Shown here: positions 1,126 through 30,679 of the stretch, piece by piece
Layout: the number at the start of each line of letters is the position of its first letter
How positions within the stretch are numbered: position 1 is the stretch's first letter
Source of the DNA: Longimicrobiales bacterium
GTDB taxonomy: Bacteria; Gemmatimonadota; Gemmatimonadetes; Longimicrobiales; Gaopeijiaceae
NCBI GenBank assembly: GCA_965238005.1
Contig: OZ250165.1
Span: forward strand, 384,001 to 448,000
Length of the DNA: 64,000 nucleotides
Direction of reading: 5' to 3'
Translations under genes and position numbers: made by a program
The notes under the pieces: model-generated
Told to the model about the DNA's origin: nothing
What the model saw: the letters and a program-made list of their open reading frames with translations, nothing else
Databases searched by the model: none

Positions 1126-4100
1126 TTAACCGGGCTCGCTCAGCAGGCCTATTGCCGCACGGAACGCCGGGAGATCATGGCCCGACGGAATGGTGTCGAC
1201 GAGGTCCCCAAGTTGCTCACGCACTGTCTGATCGGGAAATCGACTGGCGAGGGAGTGAAGCGCCCGAAGCTCCAACCAGCCCGCGCCTTGTGCGGAGGCG
1301 AGCTCGACGGCATTGCGCAGAGACGCGGCTGCGGCTTCGGCTTCTCCGCTGCGATACGCCAGCTCCCCATCGACTCGCCACAGCTCGGCCTCGAGATAGC
1401 GCTGGTTGCAGCTGTGTGACCATGAGAGCCCCTCGCGTGTGGCGGCTCGTCCTTGCTCGAACTCACCGGCCATGCTACGAGCCCGGGCGAGCAGCAGGAG
1501 ACAGTAGGTCAGGTGCAGGGTCTCCCCCTCGGTACGCGAGCGCGCCACCGACCGCACGATCTTCTCGATGCCCCCGAGCGATCCCTCGCAGACGTCCAGC
1601 CAGCCCCGAAGGGCCTCCAGGACGACTACGAGGTAGCGCTCCGAAAGACGCCGCCACAGAAGCCCAGCGTCGCCGAGGAGCTCGGCGAGGCGGACGAGGT
1701 CTTCGGATTCGGCCGCGATGATCGCCGCGTAAGTGGTGACGTACCCCAACGTCATCAGGTGATCGAGATCGACGGCGATCTCAAGAGCGGATCGGGCCGT
1801 CTCGTTGGCCCGGCCGGCATCTCCAGCCCACAGCTCGACCCACGCCAGCCGTACGAGGCAAACCGCCCTCGGGTCCTGGGCGTACAAGGCCAGATGCTCA
1901 TCGCGATGAGACACGTCATAGGCTTCAATAGCGCCTTCGAGATAGTGCCGGGCCATAGCCAGATCGCCCCGCCAGAACGCACTCACGCCGAGGAGATATC
2001 GGCCCTCTGTCCTGGCGATCGGATCATGCCTCTCATCGTCGAGGAGGGCCTGGCCGAGTTCACTGCAATCGTCGAAGCGGCAGCCCTGCAGCCGGGCGAG
2101 GCCGAGACCGCGCAGAATCGGTGCGTCCACGGGTCGGTGAAGCTTGCGGCAAAGCGAGAGGGCTCGTTCATAGAGTCGGTGCGCACTGTTGGAGCCGTAG
2201 CCCTCGAGGGCCACAAGGGGTGATCCGAGAGCGATCCGCACGTCGAGTTCGAGCGCATCGCGGTCGGGCGACGTCGGCAGGTCAGCAAGCAGTGAGAGTG
2301 CTCGCCGAAACATGGTGACCGCTTCATCGAGAGCCGACACCGCCACCGATTGGGCCCCCGCCGTGCGGTAGGCATCGATGGCCGGTTCGACCATGCCGGC
2401 CTGGTCGTAGTGCGCGGCCAGCTGCGGGCCGGCCGCGTCGATGTGGTCCTGGAACTCGACCGCGATCGCCTCGGCGACGGCCCGGTGGAGTTGACGTCGA
2501 CGAGCTGGAGTGACCATCTCCAGGGCAACGGCCCGAAGCTTGTCGTGACTGAAATCGTACGTGAGGCCCTGATCGCGGATGATCCGTCGGCGCCAGAGTT
2601 CATCGACATGGTCAACCAGCTCGTGCTCACCGATCCCAGTGGCCGAAACGATCAGACCAACCGAGAACGGTCGACCGATGACCGCCGCCACCTCAGCGAG
2701 TCGCCGAGCGCCGTCAGGTAGCTGGCCCAGTCGGGCGCGAAGCACCGCCCGCATTGTCGGTGTGAGCACTGCCTGACTTCCATCAGAGGAGATCCCGGCT
2801 CGAAGAGCTTCGATGACGAAAAGTGGATTGCCTTCGGTCTCGCTCCAGAGTTGTGCCGCCAGTTTCTGGTCAATCGTGTCTTCAGCGCCTAGCCGAGCAG
2901 CGAGGGTTGCCGTGGTGGCTTCATCGAGCGGGTCGAGTGGCACGGTGGTCACTGCCTGGTCGTGGCGCAAAGCGTCGACGAGTCCGACGAGGGGATGGTG
3001 CTCTGGGATCTCCTCCCAGCGGACGGTACCGACGATGAGGACCGGTGCCGTCTGTCCGGAACGGACAACGAAACCGATCAACTCGATGGTCTCGGCGTCA
3101 CACCACTGCAGATCGTCGATGATCAGCAAGCGCGGGCGGTCGCCGACGACGATGGCTCGGTTCACAGCATCGAACAATCGATGGCGTTGAGCCAGGTCGC
3201 CCGACTGGCTCGGTCCAGATGGCTGGGAAGCGTCGAGGAGTTCGGGCAGGAGGCGAGCGAGCTCGGCCCTCCAGACCGTTTCGAGCGTGTCGATGTGGCT
3301 CCGGAGAGCATCCGATCGGAGTAGGTCGATGACGGGACCCCACGGCAGTCTGCCCGCAGCCTCGTACGCACGAGCCGATGCCACCATGTGTCCCTCTGCT
3401 CGAACGCGCCTGCCGATCTCCATTGCGAGACGGGACTTTCCGATCCCCGGTTCCCCGGTCACCAACAAGAGATGTGCCCCACCTTGCCGCGCGGTATTCC
3501 AGGCCTCGTTGAGCTGGTTCAACTCCAGGTCGCGGCCCACGAAAGGCGATTCGGCGACGGGTGCCAGGTTCTCACCGTGCACTTCGTCGCGGTTGATTGT
3601 GCCGGCCCGGAGCTGTTGGTACATGGCCCCGATCGCCTCGCCCGGTGCCACCCCGAGGTCGCGCTCGAGCACCTCTGCATACCGGTGGTAGGAGCGCAGC
3701 GCAGCGGCTCTATCGCCAAGTGCGAGATGTGCTTCCATCTGAAATCGGACGGCCGCTTCGTCGGTCGGCTCCAGGCCGATGACGCGTTGGGCATGCTTGA
3801 TCGTGGCCTTCTGTTCGCCGCGCCCCGCAGCCTGTTCTGTCAGCCGCACGAAGGCCCCGTACGCCTCAGCTCGAAGTTTCGCTCGCTCGTCCAGGACCCA
3901 GTCGTCATAGCAAGCTGGAAGGAGATCGCCCGAATAGAGGTGCGCGGCGAGCTCGAGATCACCGACCGCCAAGGCATCGCGGAACCTCAGCACGTCGACC
4001 TCGCTCGGCCCAGTCGGAATCCACCGGACAATCTCGTTGTCGATCTCGACGAACTCACCGATGTCGGGAAGGGAATGACGGAAGTCGTGGAGCAGCTTTC

Positions 4101-4332
4101 TGAGGTTGGTGCGCGCCTGACGTTCGTCGGAGTCGAGCCAGAGCTCGAACGCGAGTCGTGAGCGGTGCTGCAGGTCTCTCCGTATCGCGATCAACGCTAG
4201 AGACCGTTGCAAACGAAGAGAGTTGAAGGCGCGAAGACGCCGCCCGTCCAAGATGATCTCGACTACACCAAGAAGTCGGACCTCTAACCGCGCCGGCGCT
4301 CCGCCACTGACCCCGCTCGTGTCACTCGGCAT
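1126..4332 (-). CDS. SARP/BTAD + AAA ATPase + TPR transcriptional regulator
   Basis: N-terminal VRLLG/BTAD region (LYSGDLL..YDDWV), Walker A GEPGIGKS, Walker B LLIIDDLQW, TEGNPLF, helical C-terminus. Confidence 0.88.
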   Translation of the reverse strand: MPSDTSGVSGGAPARLEVRLLGVVEIILDGRRLRAFNSLRLQRSLALIAIRRDLQHRSRLAFELWLDSDERQARTNLRKLLHDFRHSLPDIGEFVEIDNEIVRWIPTGPSEVDVLRFRDALAVGDLELAAHLYSGDLLPACYDDWVLDERAKLRAEAYGAFVRLTEQAAGRGEQKATIKHAQRVIGLEPTDEAAVRFQMEAHLALGDRAAALRSYHRYAEVLERDLGVAPGEAIGAMYQQLRAGTINRDEVHGENLAPVAESPFVGRDLELNQLNEAWNTARQGGAHLLLVTGEPGIGKSRLAMEIGRRVRAEGHMVASARAYEAAGRLPWGPVIDLLRSDALRSHIDTLETVWRAELARLLPELLDASQPSGPSQSGDLAQRHRLFDAVNRAIVVGDRPRLLIIDDLQWCDAETIELIGFVVRSGQTAPVLIVGTVRWEEIPEHHPLVGLVDALRHDQAVTTVPLDPLDEATTATLAARLGAEDTIDQKLAAQLWSETEGNPLFVIEALRAGISSDGSQAVLTPTMRAVLRARLGQLPDGARRLAEVAAVIGRPFSVGLIVSATGIGEHELVDHVDELWRRRIIRDQGLTYDFSHDKLRAVALEMVTPARRRQLHRAVAEAIAVEFQDHIDAAGPQLAAHYDQAGMVEPAIDAYRTAGAQSVAVSALDEAVTMFRRALSLLADLPTSPDRDALELDVRIALGSPLVALEGYGSNSAHRLYERALSLCRKLHRPVDAPILRGLGLARLQGCRFDDCSELGQALLDDERHDPIARTEGRYLLGVSAFWRGDLAMARHYLEGAIEAYDVSHRDEHLALYAQDPRAVCLVRLAWVELWAGDAGRANETARSALEIAVDLDHLMTLGYVTTYAAIIAAESEDLVRLAELLGDAGLLWRRLSERYLVVVLEALRGWLDVCEGSLGGIEKIVRSVARSRTEGETLHLTYCLLLLARARSMAGEFEQGRAATREGLSWSHSCNQRYLEAELWRVDGELAYRSGEAEAAAASLRNAVELASAQGAGWLELRALHSLASRFPDQTVREQLGDLVDTIPSGHDLPAFRAAIGLLSEPG

Positions 4333-4520
4333 GGCGTGCCCTAATGTGATCGAGCACCGTGAGGTTGTCCTCTGCGCGGTCTCTCAAAGGTCTATCCCGG
4401 CAGGCATAGTAGCCACTGGACGAGACCTTCAGGCAACTGCACATCAGGCGAACCGGGAACGCGTCGCTGCCACGCTCGATCATGCAGAGGCGCGTCGCCG
4501 CTCAGCCGTCTCGAAGTAGC
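4322..4520 (-). pseudogene. IS3-family transposase relic (OrfA/OrfB junction)
   Basis: From ATG 4483: MIERGSDAFPVRLMCSCLKVSSSGYYACRDRPLRDRAEDNLTVLDHIRARHAE*, similar to the OrfB start at 35330 (FPVRAMCRVLDLSPSGYYAW). Confidence 0.75.
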
Positions 4521-5514
4521 AGCCGAACCGCCAAGGGCACGTGTCAGGGCCTTGGAACAGCACCCGTCGCACTCTCCATCCCGCGTCGCCTCGCGCAGAT
4601 GGCCCAAACCTGCCGTCCCCCCCAAGGAACGTCCGAGTCTGTGTCGCAAGGTCGCGCAACTGCAAGCTCAAGCCCATGAGCAACATTGGCACCGGGAGGA
4701 AGAACCCACCAGCGAACACGGATCGGCGGCTCCGTAACCACCCGCAGCGACGTGAGAACTATGGTCGGCACGTCTCGCGGAAGTGGGACAGCAACGACTT
4801 TGTCCTGCTCCATGAATTGCTGCAGGTCCTGGACCTCCCTGAGGACTGTCTCAATCTCAGGGCCAGGCAATTGGAAGACATCTCTGAGTGTCGTTCTGAG
4901 TGCCGATGGGTCGAGCGCCTCGAAGACTTGGTTGCCGAGCAAGAATACGGGGGCTATGCGCTACGCGCACGGACTATCGGCTGCCGTTACATCCCAAGGA
5001 TAGCAGCGGAACGCGAGCAGGACTGGGCGGTGTCGAGGCGGCTTCTCAAACTGTGCCAAAAAACTGCGTCGTTACCCACCGACGCTCACCGACGTCCACC
5101 AACGCCGCTGATGCGTTCCCAAGGCAGGTGCGCGACTGAGTCGAGATGCCGTCCCCGTATCGGAGTCTCCACGGCCGCCCATTCCATCCGATCACCCTTC
5201 GGTGTGCCCTTACCCTGAGTCCTCCCTCCAACTGGACCATCCATCACTGCACGCCATACCTTGGCTCTTGGACCAATTAGGCGGTTGGATCTCCTATCCT
5301 CGAACAACTGCCAATGCGATCGGCGCTGCCGGTGCCCAACCACGTCGCACGGTGCGGCCGACGCCGCGGCTGCGTTCACCTCGTTGAAGGCCAGCAGGGC
5401 GCGGCGGGAGTGAGGCCAGCCCAGCTCGCATCAGAACACACGCGCTGACATCCTTTACGCGTCAGCGCGCCCGTGATTCCGACCACTTGGTGGTCAATGC
5501 CAAAGGAGTGCCCC

Positions 5515-7209
5515 GTGTCAGATCCGATCGAGCAAGCCGAGTCCATGAGTGACGACCCAAGGGTTGGCGAACGGCAACCGAGCCCCGGCCTCAGTCGTCG
5601 GGAGTTCCTCGGCATCACCGCGGCGGGCAGCACGATTGCGCTTGCCGGACCGTTGGGCTGTGCCCCGGCGGAGACCGGCAGTACGGGGCGAGGGTTCAAT
5701 ATTCCGGAGTCGGAATTAGATGAGGTAACGGTTGCCGATCTTCAGGAGGCGATGGAATCAGGCCGGTGGTCAGCCGCGCGTATATCGGAGATGTATCTGT
5801 CCAGGATCGAGGCGGTTGATCGAAGCGGCCCGACACTTCGGTCTGTCATCGAGACCAACCCCGATGCCCTGTCGATTGCCAGGGAGTTGGATGATGAGCG
5901 CGCCAGGGGCAATGTCCGTGGGCCGCTGCATGGTATTCCGGTCCTGATCAAGGACAACATTGGAACGGCGGATCGGATGAATACGACTGCTGGCTCGTAC
6001 GCGCTCGAAGGTGCGGTTCCGGCGGAGGACTCATTCGTTGCCAGGCGGCTGCGTGAGGCGGGCGCGATCATCCTCGGCAAAGCAAACCTCAGCGAATGGG
6101 CGAACTTCCGCTCGACCCGCTCGTCGAGCGGATGGAGCGGGCGCGGTGGTCAGTGCAAGAATCCCTATGTACTCGACCGCAATCCGGACGGATCGAGCTC
6201 GGGTCCCGGCGCTGCGGCTGCTGCCAATCTCGCCGCGCTCGCCATCGGTACCGAAACCAATGGATCCATTGTCAATCCCTCCTCGGCCAACGGTCTCGTC
6301 GGCATCAAGCCAACCGTAGGCCTGTGGAGTCGAAGTCGCATCATTCCCATTTCTCACTCTCAGGATACCGCAGGACCCATGACCAGAACGGTCCGCGACG
6401 GCGCAGTCTTACTCGGCGCATTGACGGGCGTCGATCCTAGCGATCCGGCTACGAGCGCCAGTAGGGGGAACGCACAGTCCGACTACACACAGTTCCTCGA
6501 TCGGGACGGGCTGCGAGGCGCCCGCGTCGGCGTTGCCCGTCAGTACTTCGGGCGTCACGAGCGGATCGACGCGCTGATGGAAGATGCGATCGCCGCGCTG
6601 GCGGAAGCGGGTGCCATGGTGGTGGATCCGGTTGAGCTCACGACCAGAGATGAGCTGCGGCAGCACACCCGCGACATTCTGCTATACGAGTTCAACGCAG
6701 ATATGAAGGCCTATCTCGACGATTTGGGTCCAGCGACCACGATGCGTTCGTTGGCCGATCTCATCGATTTCAACAACCAGAACCGTGACCGCGAGCTTCA
6801 GTACTTTGGACAGGAAGTCTTCGAGCAGTCCGAGGAAAAAGGCCCGCTCACCGATCGTGAGTACCAGGACGCCTTGGCCAACGCGCACCGACTGTCGCGA
6901 GACGAGGGAATCGATGCGGTCATGAACGAGCACCAATTGGACGCCATCATCGCCCCAGCCGGGGGTCCGGCCTGGATGATTGATCTCATCAACGGTGATC
7001 ACTATCAGGGTGGAAGTTCGACCTTCGCGGCGGTGTCAGGCTACCCGAACGTGACGCTCCCAATGGGGACGGTGTTCCGGTTGCCCGTTGGAATGTCGAT
7101 CTTTGGTCGAGCCTGGAGCGAACCGACCTTACTTCGAATCGCATACGGGTTCGAGCAAGTCACGCAGCATCGGCAGCCGCCGACGTTCTTGCCCACCCTG
7201 GAGTTGTGA
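5515..7209 (+). CDS. Amidase-signature family amidase with Tat signal (probable lipoprotein)
   Basis: LSRREFLG Tat motif, PLGC, GPLHGIPVLIKDNI, GSSSG, IGTETNGSI; SD AAAGGAG before GTG 5515. Confidence 0.92.
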   Translation: MSDPIEQAESMSDDPRVGERQPSPGLSRREFLGITAAGSTIALAGPLGCAPAETGSTGRGFNIPESELDEVTVADLQEAMESGRWSAARISEMYLSRIEAVDRSGPTLRSVIETNPDALSIARELDDERARGNVRGPLHGIPVLIKDNIGTADRMNTTAGSYALEGAVPAEDSFVARRLREAGAIILGKANLSEWANFRSTRSSSGWSGRGGQCKNPYVLDRNPDGSSSGPGAAAAANLAALAIGTETNGSIVNPSSANGLVGIKPTVGLWSRSRIIPISHSQDTAGPMTRTVRDGAVLLGALTGVDPSDPATSASRGNAQSDYTQFLDRDGLRGARVGVARQYFGRHERIDALMEDAIAALAEAGAMVVDPVELTTRDELRQHTRDILLYEFNADMKAYLDDLGPATTMRSLADLIDFNNQNRDRELQYFGQEVFEQSEEKGPLTDREYQDALANAHRLSRDEGIDAVMNEHQLDAIIAPAGGPAWMIDLINGDHYQGGSSTFAAVSGYPNVTLPMGTVFRLPVGMSIFGRAWSEPTLLRIAYGFEQVTQHRQPPTFLPTLEL

Positions 7210-15103: not shown

Positions 15104-16030
15104 ATGGACGTCACCCCGGCCAACTCTCCCCCCCTTGCCCGACTCGCACCTCCGTATGACAGCCTGGAGCCGCTCTCACCGTCCGATGACTACCTCACCC
15201 AACCTCCAGGTCCGGGATCGAGCATTGTGTGGCAATTGGGCTTCGGAAGCTGGAGCGCGGCCTTCGATGTGATTCGTCGGCGATCCCCCGGAATGGCCCT
15301 GATCGTTATTCTAGCACCCAAAGTAGAGGTCGACTCTGCCCCTCAGTTGCTCAGGGTCGTTGAGGCTGGTCGCCCGCACAGCATCCTCCCCTTCCATCCA
15401 GAGCCACACCTCGATGACCTGACGGCCGTTCTTAGGAGGGAGCCGGAGGACCTCCCGGTGGAGTTCATGGACTATCTCCTTTGGCGAGGGATGAATGTGG
15501 ACATGGACGCTCGCCGGCTCATCAGGAAGACCGTCGAGCTGTCGCTCGAGCTGTACACGGTGACGGCCCTTGCACGAAGCCTCTACCTGTCTCGTCGAGC
15601 TCTGGGACGGCGCTTCCTGAAGAGAGGACTCCCCGTTCCCTCGCACTGGCTCCACTTCGGCAGAATCCTCCGAGCAGCCCTGCGGCTTCAGAACACCGAT
15701 GAGACTCTAGCATCCGCAGCCTATCACTTCGGGTATCCAGACGCCTTTGCTTTTTCCAACCAGATGTACCGGCTTACGCGCGTCCGACCCTCCGAAGCTC
15801 GGCGCTTCCTTGGTTGGGAGTGGCTCGTCGAGGCGTGGCTCCAAACCGAGGGCAGCACGGGTGGCCTGTCGAGGGATCTCTCGCGTACATTGGTCCTTGC
15901 GCCCGACGTCTTATCACGGCGGAAGGACTCCTCTAGCGTGAATGACGCAGAAGGAATGGCGGATCCCGAAGGCCCAGCCCCCCGGCCGACGCGGAGACCG
16001 CTGTCTTCAATGACCAAGGCCAAGTCCTAG
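15104..16030 (+). CDS. AraC-family regulator
   Basis: C-terminal double HTH: LARSLYLSRRALGRRF...AYHFGYPDAFAFSNQMYRLTRVRPSE. Confidence 0.85.
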   Translation: MDVTPANSPPLARLAPPYDSLEPLSPSDDYLTQPPGPGSSIVWQLGFGSWSAAFDVIRRRSPGMALIVILAPKVEVDSAPQLLRVVEAGRPHSILPFHPEPHLDDLTAVLRREPEDLPVEFMDYLLWRGMNVDMDARRLIRKTVELSLELYTVTALARSLYLSRRALGRRFLKRGLPVPSHWLHFGRILRAALRLQNTDETLASAAYHFGYPDAFAFSNQMYRLTRVRPSEARRFLGWEWLVEAWLQTEGSTGGLSRDLSRTLVLAPDVLSRRKDSSSVNDAEGMADPEGPAPRPTRRPLSSMTKAKS

Positions 16031-16903
16031 CTGAAGCGAGGCGCGGCCCAGGGGTTCTGTCGAATGTCCTTGGACTCAGTCGAAGCAGCCCCCGTTCAAG
16101 TCCGATTGTTCGGTGGGCCGGTCGTAGAGGTGGGAGCAAAGCCGGTGCGGCTCTCGAAGTATCAGGCCTACCTCATTGCTCTAGTCTTCGGGCATGGGCA
16201 GGACGGGCTCTCCCGCTCCAAGGCCATTGAGCTCCTCTGGAATGAGCCAGACGGCCGGAGGCAGCGTCACCGCTTGAGCCAGTTGCTCCATACACTGAAG
16301 CGGAAGTTGGGTGGAAGGGAGATCGTGCGTGATGACGATTTCTTTCTCATGTCGGCCCTGCCGAGTCATGCCACCGACCTAGAGAAGATCAATTCGTCAC
16401 TCGAGCAACGTGATCACGGCACATTGTCAGGTCTCTTAGGAGGTGCGTTTCTGTCCCGTTTGGAGAAAGCACCCACCAGCCAGTTTGACCAGTGGTCAGC
16501 CTTGACGAACAGGAGGATCGACGATGCGGTGGAAGCGAGCCTCCTGCATGCATGCCTCGAGGCAGAAGAAGAGAGCGATTGGCAGGCATTGGGCGATGCA
16601 GTTCGCGTGGCGGAGATCGTCTGCGCTCCCCAGGAGAACGTACTCCTTTACTCAATAAAGCACCTCGCGATGCGAGGACGCTTTTCCCTGGTCCGGCAAA
16701 CCGTAGCACGCTTCGCCTCCCGTTGGGCTGAGGCAACCGGCGATCGCTGGGAGCCTACTCCGGGTACGACCGAGCTGCTCGCGTGGGCACAAAGCGTCAA
16801 GGGCAGATGCCGAACCTCTGCCAATGACGGGGGCCCACTTCCGCTAATCGGTCAAAAGACTGAGTTGCGGGCCTTATATGAAAAGCTCACCACGGCGTCA
16901 CCG

Positions 16904-18360
16904 GAAGCTGTCCCAACCGTAGTTGAAGGTTCCTGATAGGGGAGAAAGAAAAGTGGTGGCTCCGGGGGTCCCGGGCCGATAGGCTCGGGTAGGCAAAAAC
17001 CCCAACACGGAGCCACCACGATGAAGAGAACGTACGAGGTAAGGGATCGGGCGGACAAGCGCGCGATCAGGGAGTTCCTGAAGCGGGAGGGGCAGTTTCT
17101 GCTTCCGATGCTTGAGCTCGTGGAGCAGACGGAGGTCGCGATCGACGAAGTCATCCAGGTGATGGGACGAGCGACGATCGAAGCGGTGCTGGAGATGAGC
17201 GCCGAGGGTGTGGCAGGCGTGAAGCAGGCAGGTCGGTCACGAGCGGAAGACGACACGGTGTGGTATGGCCGGCAGGGTGGTGTGGTTTACCTGTCGGACC
17301 GGAAGGTGCGTGTGGAGCGGCCACGGCTCAGGCGCCGGGGCGCCGGGGAGGGTGGCGAGGTCGAGGTGCCGGCGTACGCAGCGATGCGGAGACCGGGCGC
17401 CGTGGCGGATCGGATGCTCGAGGTCCTGATGGCGGGGGTGAGCACGCGGAAGTACGGCCGTGTGATCGGTGAGATGGCCGACACGGTCGGGGTGAGCAAG
17501 TCGGCGGTGAGCCGTGAGACGGTCGAGGCCTCGGAGCGCGTGCTGAAGGAGCTGATGGAGCGCCGGCTGGATGCGTGGGACCTCCTGGTGATCTACCTGG
17601 ACGGGATCCAGATGGGCTCGCACCACGTGCTTGCTGCGGTAGGCGTGGACTCAGACGGAAAGAAGCACGTGCTGGGCGTGAGGGAAGGAGCGAGTGAGAA
17701 CGCCGAGGTGACCAGCGCGCTCCTAGAGGATCTGGTCGAGCGCGGCCTGGACCCGGGCAGGCGGCGGCTGTTCGTGATCGATGGCTCGAAAGCGCCCAGG
17801 AAGGCGATCGAGAAGGTGTTCGGCCAACGTCACCCCATCCAGCGCTGCCGCAACCACAAGCTCCGCAACGTGCTGGGTCATCTGCCGAAGGATCAGCATC
17901 CTCAGGTGAAGGCGGCGTTCCGGGCGGCGATGAAGCTGGACGCGAAGCAGGGCGAGCAGAAGCTCGAGCAGCTCGCCCGATGGCTCGAGCGCGACCACCC
18001 CTCGGCCTCGGCCAGCCTACGCGAAGGCCTCAGCGAGATGTTCACGATCAACCGGCTCGGCCTCCCGCCGCGGCTGAGGAAGTGCCTGGGCTCGACCAAC
18101 CTGATCGACAGCACCCACTCGGGCGTAAGACAGAAGACCCGCAGGGTGACCAACTGGAAGAACGGAGCGATGGCCTTGCGCTGGGCCGCGGCCTCGTTCG
18201 TGGAGACCGAGAAGAGCTACCGGAGGATCATCGGCTACGACCAGCTCTGGATGCTCAGGGCCCACCTCGACGACCATGAACCGGTTGCCGAAATGAGAAA
18301 GGCAGGCTAACAAGGAGACTCTCCGGAGCCACCACCTTCAACTGTCAGCGGGACACCATC
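16904..18360 (+). mobile_element. IS256-family element, 1457 bp
   Basis: Imperfect IRs GAAGCTGTCCC...AGTTGAAGGT and GATGGTGTCCC...AGTTGAAGGT; 8-bp TSD CGTCACCG at 16896-16903 and 18361-18368. Confidence 0.93.
17021..18310 (+). CDS. IS256-family transposase
   Basis: GVSTRK, YLDG, GVREGASEN, VIDGSK, IQRCRNHKLRN, STNLIDS. Confidence 0.93.
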   Translation: MKRTYEVRDRADKRAIREFLKREGQFLLPMLELVEQTEVAIDEVIQVMGRATIEAVLEMSAEGVAGVKQAGRSRAEDDTVWYGRQGGVVYLSDRKVRVERPRLRRRGAGEGGEVEVPAYAAMRRPGAVADRMLEVLMAGVSTRKYGRVIGEMADTVGVSKSAVSRETVEASERVLKELMERRLDAWDLLVIYLDGIQMGSHHVLAAVGVDSDGKKHVLGVREGASENAEVTSALLEDLVERGLDPGRRRLFVIDGSKAPRKAIEKVFGQRHPIQRCRNHKLRNVLGHLPKDQHPQVKAAFRAAMKLDAKQGEQKLEQLARWLERDHPSASASLREGLSEMFTINRLGLPPRLRKCLGSTNLIDSTHSGVRQKTRRVTNWKNGAMALRWAAASFVETEKSYRRIIGYDQLWMLRAHLDDHEPVAEMRKAG

Positions 18361-20834
18361 CGTCACCGGGACCAAGCCTTGCAGTAGTCATCGGCGAAGG
18401 GGGCATCGGCAAATCGAGAATCGTCGAGGATGTGACCAAGAGGAGGGTCCTTGAGGGATGTCAGATCTTAGGTGCACGAGCAGCCGAGTTTGAGGATTGT
18501 ATCCCTCTTAACCCGATTATTGACTCGCTGGATCGGTTGAGTGCGAAAGACCTAGTAGGGCTTGAGGAGCCATGGTCGACCGTACTGCAAAACGTACTAC
18601 CAGGACTCAGTAACGCACCCTCACAGGTAATCGCACCCACTATTCAACCCGGCAGCGTACCACGGCGCCTCTTTGAGGCATTCCTGCGCCTCTTTGAACA
18701 CCTCTCTCGAAAGCGACCCGTCCTGCTGTTCCTGGACGACGTACATTGGATCGACGAGACCTCGCTGTCAGTCATCCAGTTCATCCGCAGACGAGCGGTA
18801 GGCGATATTGAGATCGTCTTGGTCTTCACCACGGAGATGATCCAGAAGCGAGCATGCATAGAAAACTTCTTGGACTCAGTCCCAGACGAGGATGAGAAGC
18901 TTTGTGTCCGCGAGCTCGATCCAGAGGACGCGGAAACACTTGTCCTTGCACTTGCAGGCAACTCGGTAGTGCCAGAGGCGCTTATCAACATATGCGCACT
19001 GGGTGCCGGCAATCCCTTTTACCTCACCGAGTTGACCGCCGAGTATCTCGCCGGTCGACTCATACATACACCAGAGACTTTAGACCCGCCTCTCCCACCC
19101 TCCGTAAGACATCTACTTGAGCCGCGGCTGTCGGGTCTCTCAATCGCTGCAGGTCGTATGCTGGCAGCCCTGGCGGTGTCTGGACACCCACAGTCGATCC
19201 CCGATGTGGTTCGTCTGCTTGAGCTAGATGCAGACGCCCTCATTGATGCCAGTGAGGAGTTGCTCATGGCGCGACTCGTGACGGAGAGAGACGCCCGGTA
19301 CGTGATCGCGCACCCCATGCTCAGGCGTGCCGTCTATGATCGCATTAGCCCCGCCCGGAGATGTGAGCTTCACGAGCGTGTAGCCCAGTCGTTTGCTCGC
19401 AGCGAAGGCGACGGAAGGGATGGCGCGGTAGCACTACACTTTGACCGGTCCGGCAATTCAGCGGAAGCAGTGAGGTTCGCCCTCCGGGCGGCAGATCGAG
19501 CCGAACGGTCGGGAGCGGTGCCGGAGACGATCAAGAACCTATCCATCGCGCGCCGACATGAGGAGCGACCTGATGCGGCGCGAGAAATTCTTTGTCGTCT
19601 TGGTCATCTCCACTATCTGCACCAGGACCTCGAACAGGCGGCGGCGATCTTGGGCCTAGCAAGTGATCAGCTGAAAGAGGCTGAACAGAATGACCGAGCA
19701 TGGGAGGCCCAGCTGGAGCAGACCGACTGTCTATTGAGACTCAACCCATCCCTAGTGCATGATCTGCTTGACCGTCTAGTCGCGATGAGAGAGTCGTTCC
19801 AGACCGCTTCCGCCACCGAACCCTACGCCAGAGCCTTGGATATTGAGGTCCACGCTCTTGATCGCCTTGGAGATACGGCGGGTATTCGCACTAGGCTCGA
19901 GGAGGCTGAGACCGTCCTGCGGACTGGCACTCCACTGGCCAGATGTCGAGCCCATTGTACGATGGCGTTGCACCAACTCCATGGGAACGCCGCGTTGGCC
20001 TTGAACAATGCTCGACAGGCCGTCGAGCTCGCTGAGGCCAATGACTTGGTCACCGAGTGGCCAATCGCCATCAACCGGCTCATTGTCGTGTTGATCTATC
20101 GGGGATCGATGGAGTCGGAGGGCGGCTTGGAACTCCTGGAAAGAGCCGAGAATGCTGCCGCCCGAGTTGGAGACCTGCTCCTTCGCTTCACGCTCGGACT
20201 CAACCGGGGCGTCTGGTACCTCGAGACGGCAAACTATGCAGCTGCCGAGGTGGCGTTTGAGAAAGCTCAAGCGATACTTGGGGAGCCTGACGACACTTCA
20301 TCCGGAGCACTACTCAATATGAACCTCGGCGAGCTCAGTCTAATGACCGGGGACACGCCTCGTGCCGAGATGTTCTTTCGCCGTGTGTTGGAGACGGATG
20401 CTGCCTCCTTGCCTGCCAATCTCGCTCTCATCGCTGAGGCTGGACTGGGAATCTGTGAGCTCAGCGAGGGTAAGCTCCGCGAGGCACGATCCCGAAGTGC
20501 CAGATTGACACTGCCAAGTCACTGGTCGTTTGACCCAACTTTGCCAGCGACCTTTCAGGCACGGATTAATACTCGGCGAGGCGATCTTGAAGGAGCATTG
20601 CGGACGATCCGTTCGGCCGCAGAGACCATAAGGGACCGGTTCCCACTCAGCTGGATCAAGCTACGAATGGAGGAGCTTCGCCTACTGCAAAGGGGTGACA
20701 ACAGCGATGCCGCGTCGCTAGCCCATGAAGCGTATGACTTCGCTGGCGACCTTGGGTTGGAGCATCACTGCGCGGCGCTCGAGAGGTTCATGTAGGTGTT
20801 GTGTTTCTCTGCGACACGTCAGGAGTGAGGAGGA

Positions 20835-22245
20835 TCAGATCGCCTCCGGGGAAGGCCGTACCGACGAACCCCTACCGTATGCGACCTTCGGGGGGTGAGG
20901 AGCCGGCTGGGGCGCCGATAGGTGAAGAGGCTCTGCGACAAGGTCCTGCCCCATCTCGGCGGCATGGTCGTCGAGAAGGGAGGATCCCACTACCACAGCC
21001 ACGATTGCCTGATCGAACTGGATTCCGGCGAACTCTTCCAGTTGCTCCCGTACTACCGGAAGCGGAAGGGCCTTCCGGTACGAGCGGTCTGATAGCATCG
21101 CATCCATCGCATCCGAGACCTTGATGATCCGTCCACCCATCAGGATCGCGTCACCGGCCACTCCATCCGGGTAGCCCCGGCCATCGACACGTTCGTGATG
21201 GTGTCTCACGGCCCCTAGGACCTCCTCCGGGAACGACGAGAAGGATTCGAGCAGTGCCACACCCCTTGTGACGTGTGACTCGATTACCTTCCGCTCGGCA
21301 GGCGTAAGAGGTCCCTTCTCTTGAAGGATCTCAACGTACATCTCATCGATCTTACCTATGTCGTGGAGGAGTGCAGCCGTCTCAATCAAACTGACCCGAC
21401 GCGCCGAGAGCCCGAGCTCCTCTGCGATCCGTCGTGACAGATCAGCGACGCGCTGGGAGTGCCCCGACGTGTATGGGTCACGCACTTCGATGGCCTTGAC
21501 CAGGGCTTTGAGGAGATTGGTGTTGGCCTCTTGGAGCTGGAAAGTGGTCAAGTACGCGCGGCGGATGAAAAGCAGCGGGAGCAAGACAATTAGAAAGCCC
21601 GGAATACCATGATCGACATACAGGAATGCGATTACGAGAGCGATAGGGCTAACAAGGAGATCATACAGAAGATTGGACCCGGACTTACCGGCCAGTAATC
21701 CCCAGGTCTTCTTGAAGGACATCCTCTGACTCACGGCAATCGCGAACGAAACCGATCCGTGATTGATCAGCAGGAATACGAGGGCGAACGCGACCACTGG
21801 TCCAAGCTGGAAGGCAAAGTCAGGCCCCGTCAGCTCCGGAGCCTGAGGTAGTCCCCCAACCGCTGTGAAGACGAGCCCGCCAACGACCGTCGAAAGAACA
21901 AACTGGCTGATGTTGAAGATGGCCTTTATCGGCAACTTCTGCCGAATAATGAGCTCACCGAAGGTCCCTGTCGTGGCATGGAGGATCAGAGCTGGCGCGG
22001 GCCCAAACAGTAGAACGCAGGCCAACAAGGGAAGAAACGTAATGGACGAACTACCCGAATTCCCACCAACCTTGATCGTTAGCGACAGGGACTCGGATAG
22101 CAACCCCAGGGTGATTAGGGCGAGGAGTCCCGCCCAGGCTTCCGCAGGAAGGCCAAAAAGGGAAGCCCAATCTACCAGGAGGCAGAGAACCCAGGGATAG
22201 AACTACAACTACCGCGACGTATGTACGTACGGGTCCAGTGTCCAT
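20835..22245 (-). pseudogene. Membrane-sensor HD-GYP phosphodiesterase with an apparent +1 frameshift near 22182
   Basis: RDPYTSGHS, LLHDIGK, HHHERVDGRGYP and a multi-TM N-terminus. The ATG 22245 frame (MDTGPVRTYVAVVVVLSLGSL) joins LLVDWASLFGLP...LLSESLS if one base is removed; may be a read error. Confidence 0.85.
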
Positions 22246-22274
22246 TCACAAGACCCCCCTCGACCCAATCGCCC

Positions 22275-22358
22275 TTACCAGCCTGAAATGCCGCTGTAGA
22301 TCAGCCACGCGGCAAAAAAATCCCACAGAGAGCTCCAAGCGTCTACAATGAGCAGCAC
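22275..22358 (-). CDS. 27-aa hydrophobic Trp-rich small peptide MLLIVDAWSSLWDFFAAWLIYSGISGW
   Basis: SD GGAGGTG 6 nt before GTG 22358; TAA at 22275-22277; sits between two same-strand genes; below ORF-track cutoff. Confidence 0.7.
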   Translation of the reverse strand: MLLIVDAWSSLWDFFAAWLIYSGISGW

Positions 22359-22491
22359 ATTTATCACCTCCCTTCGGGTGGTGTCAGCTTCCTCCGCTCA
22401 GGAAGCCGCTGCGCTCCGCTCTTGCCTCTCCGCTTCGCTCTTGGCCGGTCGAGGGGGTCTCCCGTTGTGAGTTGTCCGCTCCGAGCTCGCT

Positions 22492-23175
22492 TCAGATTCT
22501 GCCCCGGACCCAGCGGTCCGCGGCCTGAAGCGTTCCCAATATCACAGCCTTGTCGGCTGTGTCTTCGACGGCCGCCGCCCCCGCGAGGGCGGTGATCGAC
22601 CGTCCGTGAATCGCGTGTATCGCAACCAACGCGAACTGCTTGTCGAACGCCTCCAACAACTTCACTCCATCGACAGATAGGGCCACCTGGCCCTCTCCCA
22701 GGAGGGCCGCGATGGCACCTTCAATCGCCTTGACTGCCGCAGCGGCAGTCGTCTCGAGTCTCGCTCGGGCCAGGTCGGCTCCACTGGCCTCGCCTTCGTA
22801 GCGCTCTCCGCGCCACTCCACCGTCACCCGGATCCGCACTCGGTGAGACCCTTCGGTCTTGGCCTGGTGGCTGACGAAGAGCATCCGCTCCTCCCTGTTC
22901 AGCCGAGCCGGGTGCTGAAATACCTTTGCTTCTCTAGCCGCCTCCTCTTCCGTCGTCTGCGCCACCGACACCTTGCGGTGGTCGATCTTCATGCCGAATT
23001 GGGCCACCAGTGCGGACTCGACGTTCCGGACCGACTGCTTCGGCGACACGTCGCCCAGGGTGAGGAGATGGACCTCTTCGATCTCTCCTCCGGGCCGTGC
23101 CACCACCCGCGCCGACACCACTCCCTTCAGGGAGTTCAGCAGGGCCTATGCCTCCTCGATACTCCATTCCTTCAT
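22492..23175 (-). pseudogene. Conserved hypothetical protein (EVHLL...PKQSVRNVESAL...IDHRKVSVAQ) with in-frame TAG at 23146-23148
   Basis: MKEWSIEEA*ALLNSLKGVVSARVV is continuous with ORF 22492..23121. Confidence 0.7.
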
Positions 23176-23682: not shown

Positions 23683-24387
23683 ATGGCGAGACCCCACGGC
23701 GTTGCTGCGCCCGTCCTTGCTTTCTCCCTCTTTCTCGCCGCATGCGCGACCACCCAGTCCATCTCCCGAGTGACTGAGTTTCCCGCGTTAACCAAGACGG
23801 GCGTTCAGCCGGGTGACCAGCTCGTCATCGCCTTCTACACGGCGGCCGGGACCGAGCTCGCGGAGGTCTCGGGAGAACGAACCATCGACGACAATGGTGA
23901 GATATTCCTGCCGTTCCTGGGGACCGTGACCGTCCTCGGCCTCGACGCCCAAACCATACGCGAGCTCCTCGAGGACCGCTACGGAGCTCTGTACTCCGAT
24001 CCCGTCGTCGAAGTGGTAGCCAACATCCACGTCAATATCACGGGCGCTGTCGCCAGAGCCGGCCAGTACTTCGTTCCCCCATCGGCAACACTCGTCGACG
24101 CTCTGGCGCTCGCGGGAGGAGCCGGCTCGGAGGTCGACCTCGGCCTGCAAGGAGGGGCGGCCGATCCAGCCCGCGTGCGGCTCGTCCGTGACGGCGTGGC
24201 GTCGGTCATCGACATGCGGCCTCTGGATGTCCGTCCGGAGGTCCTGTCGCTTCGTGTCCAGTCCGGAGATTGGCTCCACGTTCCCAGGGCCATCCGCTCG
24301 CAGGTTCGGGACGACGTCACGTTCTACGGCACGGTTCTGACTACGCTCCTCACACTCGGCTCTCTCATTGTCCTGATCGCGCGTTAG
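23683..24387 (+). CDS. Polysaccharide export lipoprotein (Wza-like, Poly_export + SLBB)
   Basis: Lipobox [40 protein letters not shown]. Confidence 0.85.
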
Positions 24388-28377: not shown

Positions 28378-29025
28378 CTATCCCGACGTCTTCTTGAGGC
28401 GTCCGGCCACCAGCGTCCAGCTCTGGTCGGCCAGCAGCTCCGCATCGGCCTCGTCGTGGCTCACCAGGACCAGCGGAGTGCCGTGCCTTTGGGCGTAGTC
28501 GCGCACCGCCGTGGCGATCTCCAGGCGTAGGGGCCGGTCGAGGGCGGAGAATGGCTCGTCCAGAAGCAGCAGCCTGGGATTCGAGAGCAGAGCCCTGCCC
28601 AGGGCCACCCTCTGGCGCTCACCCCCCGACAGAAACCGCGGCCGCCTTTCCAGGAGCTCGGAGAGGGAAAGAAGCTCGGAAACCTTGGCGACGTCGGACG
28701 GGTCCGGCCCCGTGTAGGCCAGATTCTCCCGCACCGAGAGGTGGGGGAAGAGAAGGACCTCCTGGGGCACCCAGCCGACCCGTCGCTCCCAGGCCGGCAC
28801 GGACACTCCGGCCCCCGTGTCGAGCCAGATGTCTCCGTTGACCCGCACCGTCCCCTGAGCCGCGGGCTCCAGCCCCGCGAGGACCCGCAGGAGGGAGCTC
28901 TTCCCCGCGCCGGACGGTCCAACGATCGCGACCGAGGCGCTGCTCGGGCTCCAGTCCACGTCGAGCTCGAAGGCGTCCAGAGGGAGGCGGATCCGCGCGT
29001 GCAGGGGTCCGGCCTCAGTGCCCAT
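28378..29025 (-). CDS. modC: Molybdate ABC transporter ATP-binding protein
   Basis: GPSGAGKS, RRVGWVPQ, LFPHLSV, LSGGERQRVA, LLLDEPFSALD. Confidence 0.88.
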   Translation of the reverse strand: MGTEAGPLHARIRLPLDAFELDVDWSPSSASVAIVGPSGAGKSSLLRVLAGLEPAAQGTVRVNGDIWLDTGAGVSVPAWERRVGWVPQEVLLFPHLSVRENLAYTGPDPSDVAKVSELLSLSELLERRPRFLSGGERQRVALGRALLSNPRLLLLDEPFSALDRPLRLEIATAVRDYAQRHGTPLVLVSHDEADAELLADQSWTLVAGRLKKTSG

Positions 29026-30427
29026 GGTGGTCCTCCAACCGTCTCCGCTGCCACCGGGACAGCGACTCGAAGCCGAGGAGCGCCACCAGGGAGAGCATCA
29101 CGCTCGCCACCACCAGCGTCCACGTCGCTCCCCGCCCCGACGGAGACTCCAGAAGCGAGTAGACTGCGAGGGCGATGGTCCGGGTCTCGCCCTCCAGGTT
29201 GCCGGCCAGAACCACCGTCGCCCCGAACTCCCCCAGGGCCCGGGCGAAGGCCAGCACGCTGCCTGCTGCGATCCCCGGGAGGGCCAGCGGGAGCGAGATG
29301 CGGCGGAAGGTGGGCGCCTTGGGTACACCCAGCGTCCACGAGACCTCCTCGAAGCGCCGATCCACCGTCTCGAAGGCACCCCGGATGGCCATGACGTAGA
29401 GGGGAAAGCCCACCACGAGAGCCGCCACGATGGCGCCCAGGACCGTGAAGGGAACCGGCAGGCCCATGGCGTCGAGCAGCCCACCCAGGGCCGACTGCCG
29501 GCCCAGGACGCTGAGAAGGAGGAAGCCGGTCACCACGGGCGGAATGACCAGGGGCGCCATGAAGAGCATGGAGACGAAGGTCTTCCCAAGGAAGTCGTGC
29601 CGGGCCAGCATCCACCCCACCGCCACGGCGGGGACGAGGCCCAGGACCACAGCCCCCAGGGCCACGATGAGGGAGAGGCGAACCGCGGACCAGGGATCGA
29701 GGGCGAAGCCCGCCTCGGGTGTCTCGGAAGCGGCCGCTCCGGACTCTGCTACGTCCCGCACCCCGAAGCCCGACGCGGCGAAGATGGCCCGGGCCGCCGG
29801 CCCCTGGAGGAAGCCCACGAACGCGGCCGCCGCCTCGGCGCTGCGCGATCCCGCCGTCACCGCGCCCGGGTACACGACCGCCGGATAGCCCTCGGAGGGA
29901 AACGCGAACACCATCCGGACGCGGTCTTCGGCGAGGGCGTCGGTCCGATATACGATGCCCCCGTCGGCCTCGCCCCTGGCCACCCACTCCAGGGTGCCCC
30001 GTACGCTCCCCCCCCGAACGACGCGGTCCTCGACGGCTTCCCAGACCCCGGCCAGCTCCAGGGCGGCCCTCGCGTAGCGCCCGGCCGGCACGTCCTCGCC
30101 GGCCACGGCTATCCTCCGGAGACTGGAACCCTCCAGACCTCGCGGATCATCCGGTCCGAAGGCGGCATCCGAGGGCACCACGAACACCAGCCGGTTCGTT
30201 GCCAGGGGGCGGATCGACGCGGGGTCGACGCTCCCCTTTTCCTCGAGCCATCGCATCCAGTCGACGTCGGCCGAAATGAAGACGTCCGCGGGGGCGCCAC
30301 GGAACACCTGGGGCGCCAGGCGCGAGGTGGCGTCGAAGCTGAATCGGACCGGGAGCCCACCGGCGCGCTCCCAGGCCCCGGCCACCTCGGGTAGCACGTC
30401 CTGAAGGCTCGAGGCGGCCAGAACCAT
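29015..30427 (-). CDS. modB: Fused molybdate-binding protein ModA + permease ModB (start uncertain; frame is open to 30622)
   Basis: ModA motifs AASSL, ATSRLA.Q, VPAGRYA, GIVYRTD, then ModB motifs PLVIPPVVTGF and FARALGEFGAT in one frame. Confidence 0.85.
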   Translation of the reverse strand: MVLAASSLQDVLPEVAGAWERAGGLPVRFSFDATSRLAPQVFRGAPADVFISADVDWMRWLEEKGSVDPASIRPLATNRLVFVVPSDAAFGPDDPRGLEGSSLRRIAVAGEDVPAGRYARAALELAGVWEAVEDRVVRGGSVRGTLEWVARGEADGGIVYRTDALAEDRVRMVFAFPSEGYPAVVYPGAVTAGSRSAEAAAAFVGFLQGPAARAIFAASGFGVRDVAESGAAASETPEAGFALDPWSAVRLSLIVALGAVVLGLVPAVAVGWMLARHDFLGKTFVSMLFMAPLVIPPVVTGFLLLSVLGRQSALGGLLDAMGLPVPFTVLGAIVAALVVGFPLYVMAIRGAFETVDRRFEEVSWTLGVPKAPTFRRISLPLALPGIAAGSVLAFARALGEFGATVVLAGNLEGETRTIALAVYSLLESPSGRGATWTLVVASVMLSLVALLGFESLSRWQRRRLEDHHGH

Positions 30428-30497
30428 GAGGGCGTCGGGCTCCTGGGGGGTCCCGGAATCGTCCGACCGAGCGCCTCCCGGAGGGCCGGAAGCGGCC

Positions 30498-30679
30498 GCC
30501 AGCCCCTGGGCCGCCGATAGCTGGACAGCTAGGGCCCATCGGAGACATTGTTTAGGTTCAAGGAGTGACACGCGGCAGCCCGGAGGCGAGTCCCCGGTGA
30601 GACAAGTAAGTCTGTCGCACACAAGGAGTTCTTCTGGTCATAGGCAGTCGGCAGCTTAGGCATCACCTCAGAGACCGGC
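30498..30679 (-). ncRNA. ssrS: Candidate 6S RNA
   Basis: 182 nt. 5' GCCGGTCTCTGAGGT pairs with 3' GCCCAGGGGCTGGC; contains CTCTGAG, CCTTGAACC and CGGCGG segments resembling E. coli 6S, plus an internal hairpin. Confidence 0.6.

Follow-up and report, generated by a model that had tools for sequence, protein, structure and literature searches.

A selected, tryptophan-tailed small gene within a covarying RNA element precedes MASE9-HD-GYP genes in two bacterial phyla

Introduction

Small membrane proteins such as MgrB and SafA tune the sensor PhoQ, and peptide pheromones operate in the ComC–ComD, Agr, Phr/PapR and ComS/SHP systems. The membrane domain MASE9 (PF20972), which is found also in T. 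maritima, T. thermophilus and Streptomyces, is an orphan sensor. It was defined in a study that proposes intramembrane ligand binding for it, and in the main text of that study the words "peptide" and "upstream" do not occur (10.1101/2021.11.05.467447). Described MASE9-HD-GYP phosphodiesterases include TM1467 of T. maritima and HdgA of S. venezuelae (10.1101/2021.11.05.467447, PMC6205966). HdgA and HdgB are reported as membrane-bound and without a developmental phenotype, and the authors of that report supposed that activating signals were missing (PMC6205966). The S-component fold, for its part, is described as a sensor in 5TMR kinases; the known S-component ligands given are vitamins, metals and pyruvate, not peptides, and that paper contains neither "MASE" nor "HD-GYP" (PMC11109136).

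We analyzed a stretch of 64,000 nucleotides from a Longimicrobiales bacterium of the phylum Gemmatimonadota (assembly GCA_965238005.1, contig OZ250165.1, positions 384,001 to 448,000), hereafter called the window. Its minus strand carries an unnamed protein gene, a structured RNA leader, a small ORF and a MASE9-HD-GYP gene (Table 1). This four-part module is real and widespread, and it occurs in two phyla. In the literature searched, which left out most subscription journals, we found no description of the peptide, the RNA element or the upstream protein family, nor did the term TM0504 appear in it.

Table 1. Features of the module and its neighbors in the window
Feature	Position	Strand	Basis or remark
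AraC-family gene; family-level neighbor, not core	15104..16030	+	Pfam
Convergent AAA-TPR regulator gene, split by IS256; neighbor, not core	16064..20795	+	Pfam and IS analysis
MASE9-HD-GYP gene, without a clear SD of its own; frameshifted in the window copy	20835..22245	-	Pfam and alignment to L171
3′ arm of helix P0; the HD-GYP start codon follows after about 10 nt	22254..22265	-	Pairing with the 5′ arm
Peptide ORF, 27 codons, hydrophobic, GTG start, terminal Trp	22275..22358	-	ORF reading and conservation
Shine–Dalgarno sequence (SD) GGAGGTG of the peptide ORF	22365..22371	-	6-nt spacer to GTG
Covarying hairpin P1, further AGCG in the loop	22385..22408	-	RNAalifold and pair counts
AGCG block; NAG triplets recur every 5 nt	22407..22440	-	Strict pattern unique to the locus in the genome
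5′ arm of long-range RNA helix P0, C-rich	22447..22457	-	Pairs with 22265-22254
Conserved unnamed protein gene, in-frame TAG in the window copy	22492..23175	-	N-terminal CDF-CTD/KH-like and LeuA/CimA-type domain (model)
Divergent Wza-like Poly_export/SLBB gene; patchy neighbor, not core	23683..24387	+	Pfam

Results and Discussion

A small gene under purifying selection precedes MASE9-HD-GYP genes

An earlier note on this DNA had proposed an unannotated peptide ORF with four Trp and a Gly-Trp end, starting behind an SD at ideal spacing and ending 29 nt before a multi-TM HD-GYP gene. The sequence bears out the ORF, its SD, its Trp residues and the distance of 29 nt, which leads to the ATG at 22245. 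As a pattern, the Trp content held only in part: the four Trp and the Gly-Trp end are present in the window, whereas only the terminal Trp is conserved. Four Trp occur in a single one of 170 distinct peptide genes, the window copy itself, and the Gly-Trp end in 16 of them.

PF20972 was present in 132 of the 301 Gemmatimonadota genomes sampled, with 134 matches, of which 125 were evaluable after nine with less than 450 nt of upstream sequence had been left out. Directly upstream of the MASE9 gene, 120 of these 125 loci had an SD-led ORF of 12 to 40 codons, and in 106 of the 125 it carried Trp within the last two residues. Read by eye, four of the five remaining loci also have the peptide, preceded by a weaker SD, and the fifth is interrupted. 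The identical scan before 2,219 long ORFs of the window's genome returned any such ORF in 373 cases, of which 13 had Trp at either of the final two positions and 2 were additionally hydrophobic (hydrophobicity of the peptides was judged from residue composition). In 34 disjoint pairs of peptide genes (equal length, at least 75% identity, a filter that favors similar pairs), third codon positions held 180 of 313 differences, and pS was 0.31 and pN 0.08, giving a dN/dS of 0.21. The small ORF is therefore a genuine, selected gene whose residues matter, and two expectations of the earlier note, comparable small ORFs before the HD-GYP orthologues and conservation at the codon level, were borne out.

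Within this frame the peptide is highly variable, with lengths of 14 to 35 residues and a mean column identity of 20%. One Trp is present in 98 of the 170 distinct peptides and none in 12. Among 153 peptides, 145 have Gly, Glu or Asp four residues ahead of the Trp. Pfam and NCBIfam yielded no fitting family among 76 peptides scanned, only single marginal matches. Between the window and its closest relative (locus L171), the leader RNA is nearly identical and the peptide strongly different, with three extra Trp in the window; the peptide may be evolving fast or, as the locus decays, may have come under relaxed selection.

The module in a second phylum

On a plasmid of Natranaerobius thermophilus (Bacillota; NZ_CP144220.1, L251), a homologue of the upstream gene (hhalign 99.8%) is accompanied by MASE9-HD-GYP and a small ORF that contains Trp. 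AGCG units and an enclosing helix are present as well, and DUF5317 is the downstream neighbor. The small ORF, at about 3682–3768, is unannotated in the record, and both MASE9-HD-GYP and DUF5317 appear to be split there (3813–5611). In the phylum of genome G326, a MAG titled Bacillota, MASE9 was present in 14 of 31 genomes; we examined 19 of the 20 matches, leaving out that of G326 itself, which had already been counted as L188. The upstream gene was found at 10 of these 19 loci, all 10 of which had the peptide and nine at least three AGCG units. Among the loci lacking the upstream gene, the peptide was present in one of eight evaluable (the ninth had no upstream DNA), so MASE9 stands without a peptide in the other seven. 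Judged by eye, the peptides of this phylum resemble short signal peptides that begin with basic residues and end in aromatic ones.

Three further loci should be mentioned. L258 has the peptide and MASE9-HD-GYP, and neither an upstream gene nearby nor the AGCG block. L186 and L188 are modules of Gemmatimonadota type on contigs in MAGs titled Phycisphaerales and Bacillota, respectively, and both are probably misbinned. MASE9 was found in none of 25 other genomes from the phylum of G327, the source of L186, and this locus was not counted as a third phylum.

A conserved RNA element encloses the peptide gene

The earlier description had overlooked a conserved RNA structure around the peptide ORF. 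In the fold of the window (z −2.5), a long-range helix, P0, encloses the entire ORF. Over 120 loci, the longest helix between the leader and the region after the stop codon averaged 11.4 bp, compared with 8.4 bp for the arms of other loci and 7.8 bp for shuffled sequences, and it reached 12 bp in 48 loci, against 6% and 1.5% in these two controls. Whole-region duplex energies were noisy, the own pair being best in 12 of 120 loci, and contiguous helices and pair counts were used instead. RNAalifold, run on 40 close loci out of 48 prepared, recovered both the enclosing helix and the hairpin. In the pair counts, 93.7% of cells were paired (37–54% in slid controls). Double changes occurred at 12 of 19 pairs and no shuffle out of 500 matched this, a test that relatedness among the loci inflates. 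G-U pairs were present in 73 of 87 helices, which points to an element acting as RNA, not as DNA. Leaders carry AGCG four to six times in 152 of 170 cases, and the 5-nt recurrence of AG amounts to 3.28 per sequence, compared with 1.16 after shuffling. Rfam gave no match to the element at gathering score, either for the window or for the 14 loci scanned, and no sigma-70-like promoter was found on the minus strand.

Several conventional roles of such a leader were considered and set aside. An intrinsic terminator at the helix is not general, as T-rich tails with at least five T in the 8 nt after the 3′ arm were seen in only 11 of 87 loci. A Trp attenuator is disfavored by the same tails together with the lack of any Trp-codon run. 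Strong burial of the peptide SD by the fold turned out to be a weak effect only (0.30 versus 0.38 unpaired, 26 of 40 loci), and a read-through fusion of peptide and MASE9 would be in frame in only 32 of 119 cases. A wider AGCG regulon was not seen either: the strict pattern matched only the module locus in four of five family genomes, and a looser pattern failed to find the module locus in G284, its additional matches being roughly as frequent as those of the reversed pattern used as control. TRAP (PF02081) was found in none of five genomes, with B. subtilis as a positive control.

The geometry of P0 raises the possibility that the ORF is a cis-acting leader: translating it would unwind the helix and thereby allow the HD-GYP gene to be translated or transcribed, while the peptide would matter little or act only inside the ribosome. 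Its 3′ arm begins a median of 8 nt after the peptide stop codon, presumably near the leading edge of a terminating ribosome, and the strict tie of helix, peptide stop codon and downstream start would fit a purely cis role too. Few HD-GYP starts show an SD core (14 of 120 scored), but the HD-GYP SD lies outside the helix in Natranaerobius and, by eye, in several loci of the G326 phylum. In computed folds, leaving out the leader makes the HD-GYP start region somewhat more accessible in 23 of 34 loci, yet the opening is small (from 0.27 to 0.39 at −20 to −10, none at −10 to 0). T occurs 2.8 times in the 8 nt that follow the arm, against 1.2 expected, although few tails are truly T-rich. Runs of Trp codons as in attenuators are absent. 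The low dN/dS and the conserved hydrophobic, Trp-tailed pattern speak for a peptide whose sequence counts, and we regard an exclusively cis-acting role as unlikely.

The upstream gene encodes a predicted two-domain protein

The earlier note had also pointed to a conserved hypothetical gene upstream, and this gene lies within about 1 kb of the peptide in 116 of 120 loci. Its product belongs to a family of 4,007 clusters at 50% identity (E ≤ 0.001) that carries no family name: Pfam and NCBIfam gave only single marginal matches on 54 members, the ESM Atlas only clusters labelled "hypothetical protein", and a sequence search of the PDB came back empty. The structure model (pLDDT 92.5, pTM 0.65) places a LeuA/CimA regulatory-domain fold at residues 86–214 (Foldseek E 2.5e-6; Z 9.4, rmsd 3.2, 110 residues aligned), while the sequence match to this domain is marginal (2 of 54 members, E 0.012). 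The small N-terminal domain resembles the C-terminal domains of CDF proteins with a middling score (Z 7.8). The protein is thus predicted to have a two-domain fold with a LeuA/CimA-type regulatory domain and is a candidate amino-acid sensor. Paralogues occur several per genome, with up to six matches (L015, L016, L017 and L021, family f3; L013), and some stand in tandem or before short genes resembling histidine-kinase dimerization helices in place of MASE9. In one clade (L033, L052, L065 and related loci), a receiver-domain-like gene apparently separates the upstream gene from the RNA leader, as judged by eye.

The near-constant company of the upstream gene, with its match to amino-acid-binding LeuA/CimA regulatory domains, suggests another target for the peptide, which might act on the LeuA-like domain in feedback on its own RNA, or on the membrane in the manner of an RNA-silenced type I toxin. 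The mRNAs of type I toxins typically pair 5′ to 3′ around a hydrophobic ORF, and a helix around a hydrophobic ORF is what we see here; the burial of the SD is slight, however. Peptide distances correlate with those of the upstream protein (partial rank correlation 0.12), yet the peptide keeps a fixed position before MASE9 in two phyla, and L258 retains peptide and MASE9 with no upstream gene nearby. On this evidence a target other than MASE9 appears improbable.

MASE9 as a candidate receptor of the peptide

The multi-TM HD-GYP gene that the earlier note had placed downstream was confirmed by Pfam, which finds MASE9 (E 1.9e-10; 41.5 bits, cut-off 24.3) followed by HD_5 (E 2.6e-30; 105.8 bits, cut-off 27.2). 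The HD, HH and GYP motifs are readable in the window translation, and from its sequence the protein is predicted to be a c-di-GMP phosphodiesterase. A MASE9 model of the orthologue in L145, built from 85 sequences (pLDDT 94.9), fits the six-helix S-component core, and a cytoplasmic output domain is present in the protein. The top 14 VIA rows were all ECF S-components (Z 10.8–14.3; next row Z 8.0), the best with Z 14.3, rmsd 2.5 and 153 residues aligned, although Z values near 14 are common among helical proteins. Foldseek gave no match at E ≤ 0.001 for the same model; its best S-component match was at 2.2e-3 and others were weaker. MASE9 is accordingly predicted to adopt the ligand-pocket fold of ECF S-components, and the earlier note's proposal of the peptide as a ligand or intramembrane modulator of the phosphodiesterase would suit such a fold.

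We favor a reading in which the peptide, through its Trp tail, serves MASE9 as a ligand or membrane partner while the RNA element adjusts peptide production, and we give it a probability of about 0.5. It is favored because the peptide sequence is selected and its tail constrained, because the peptide is kept before a sensor with a predicted pocket fold in two phyla, and, as a weak argument, because peptide distance tracks MASE9 slightly better than the other partners. Over 91 loci with non-independent kin, the partial rank correlation of the peptide was 0.19 with MASE9, 0.08 with HD and 0.12 with the upstream protein; the signal is small, the value for MASE9 exceeding that for the upstream protein in only 72% of subsamples. 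Against a ligand role count the high variability of the peptide, the 12 of 170 peptides without Trp, the occurrence of MASE9 also without a peptide, the non-peptide nature of known S-component ligands, and the modest Foldseek value.

If the peptide is a ligand or partner of MASE9, the circuit could run as follows. The upstream protein would bind the AGCG units, and its LeuA-like domain would gate translation of the peptide on a metabolite cue. A ribosome finishing the peptide would open P0 and so couple synthesis of the SD-poor HD-GYP gene. The peptide would travel to the membrane, either at full length or trimmed to the final four to six residues, and there the predicted S-component pocket of MASE9 may bind the Trp tail and thereby set the predicted c-di-GMP phosphodiesterase activity. 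The complete chain, from a metabolite-sensing RNA-binding protein that reads AGCG and releases the Trp-tailed peptide to an S-component-fold receptor that it switches as ligand, is a tentative proposal and somewhat doubtful as a whole.

The copy in the window is damaged

The earlier note had missed the lesions of the window copy. It has the HD-GYP gene begin 29 nt after the peptide ORF, where the ATG at 22245 lies. This ATG is out of the MASE9-HD-GYP frame, and its product is 64 aa long. Relative to the intact 469-aa gene in L171, one extra base near 22178 causes a +1 frameshift. A sequencing error is unlikely, since contigs of three runs (X1, X2 and X5) cross the site without a gap; a contig of run X3 lacks the extra base. 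The frameshift is genuine, and a related strain carries an intact allele. As for the upstream gene, its conservation stands, but the window copy has an in-frame TAG at codon 10 (23148–23146), where L171 has Glu; an X3 contig covers the TAG without a difference. A CTG after an SD-like stretch just past this TAG could serve as a restart.

In addition, IS256 (16904–18360, with an 8-bp target duplication) interrupts the convergent AAA-TPR gene just before its Walker A motif, and the site is empty in run X2. Sequencing depth over IS256 is hundreds of times that of its flanks. The window copy of the module is decaying and probably non-functional, which makes it a poor subject for study. Two other Longimicrobiales loci (L178, L106/L212) have an IS-like interruption directly after the upstream gene or the peptide, and MASE9 is present in 11 of 47 family genomes; in this order the module is thus frequently missing or damaged.

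Neighbors and exopolysaccharide control

Regarding the flanking regulators named in the earlier note, Pfam confirmed AraC and AAA_16/TPR and gave no match for a BTAD domain in the first half of the latter. The divergent Wza-like exporter was likewise recovered as Poly_export. Production of exopolysaccharide (EPS) is commonly governed by c-di-GMP, and the earlier note had linked the module to EPS; the divergent Wza gene in the window and close relatives, with a Wza homologue within 3 kb in at least 28 of 80 related loci (many on short contigs), would suit a module that specifically controls this exporter. The synteny is patchy, however, which leaves the proposed link weak: only one of six wider 20-kb regions has Wza, thymidine kinase is an equally frequent neighbor (35 of 80 related loci), no other capsule genes stand beside Wza among the window ORFs scanned, and the Natranaerobius neighbor is DUF5317. 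Specific control of the Wza-type exporter is, in our view, improbable. Elsewhere in the window, the minus-strand genes at 28378–30622 are, judging from their translations, presumably of molybdate ABC type, with an apparent ModA-ModB fusion.

Comparison with known systems

The module offers a concrete candidate ligand for MASE9, together with a predicted pocket fold that could accommodate it. Its RNA motif is missing from Rfam, and its upstream protein represents a large family without a name. Whether a c-di-GMP phosphodiesterase takes peptide input could be examined directly in Bacillota that grow in culture. If the proposal is true, the module would be a self-contained, cross-phylum circuit of an undescribed kind that de-orphans MASE9 and provides the first peptide ligand of the S-component fold.

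The leader recalls TRAP and HutP attenuation in that NAG triplets recur in it every 5 nt and a candidate amino-acid sensor is encoded next to it. TRAP attenuation sites comprise eleven triplets, whereas the module has about five AGCG units and a candidate binder with a fold unrelated to TRAP or HutP. As in peptide pheromone systems, a short, hydrophobic, lineage-variable precursor with a conserved Trp-bearing C-terminal tail is encoded by a conserved, selected gene beside a putative receptor, here MASE9, which differs from theirs in belonging neither to the histidine kinases nor to the RRNPP proteins. Among the neighbors scanned, no gene dedicated to export, proteolysis or maturation of the peptide was found, and general Sec or proteases could take this part. 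With TM1467 and HdgA the downstream protein shares PF20972 and HD_5 as well as the HD, HH and GYP motifs, the window copy differing by its frameshift. The 5TMR-LYT kinases BtsS, YpdA and KinB have the S-component core, an N-terminal extra helix and a cytoplasmic signaling domain in common with MASE9-HD-GYP; their known cue is pyruvate, whereas the module has an HD-GYP output and the peptide as its proposed cue. Finally, the module resembles MgrB/SafA-PhoQ in that a very small hydrophobic protein is associated with a sensor in the membrane, and differs in that its proposed target is a c-di-GMP enzyme and that the peptide gene is presumably co-transcribed within a structured RNA.
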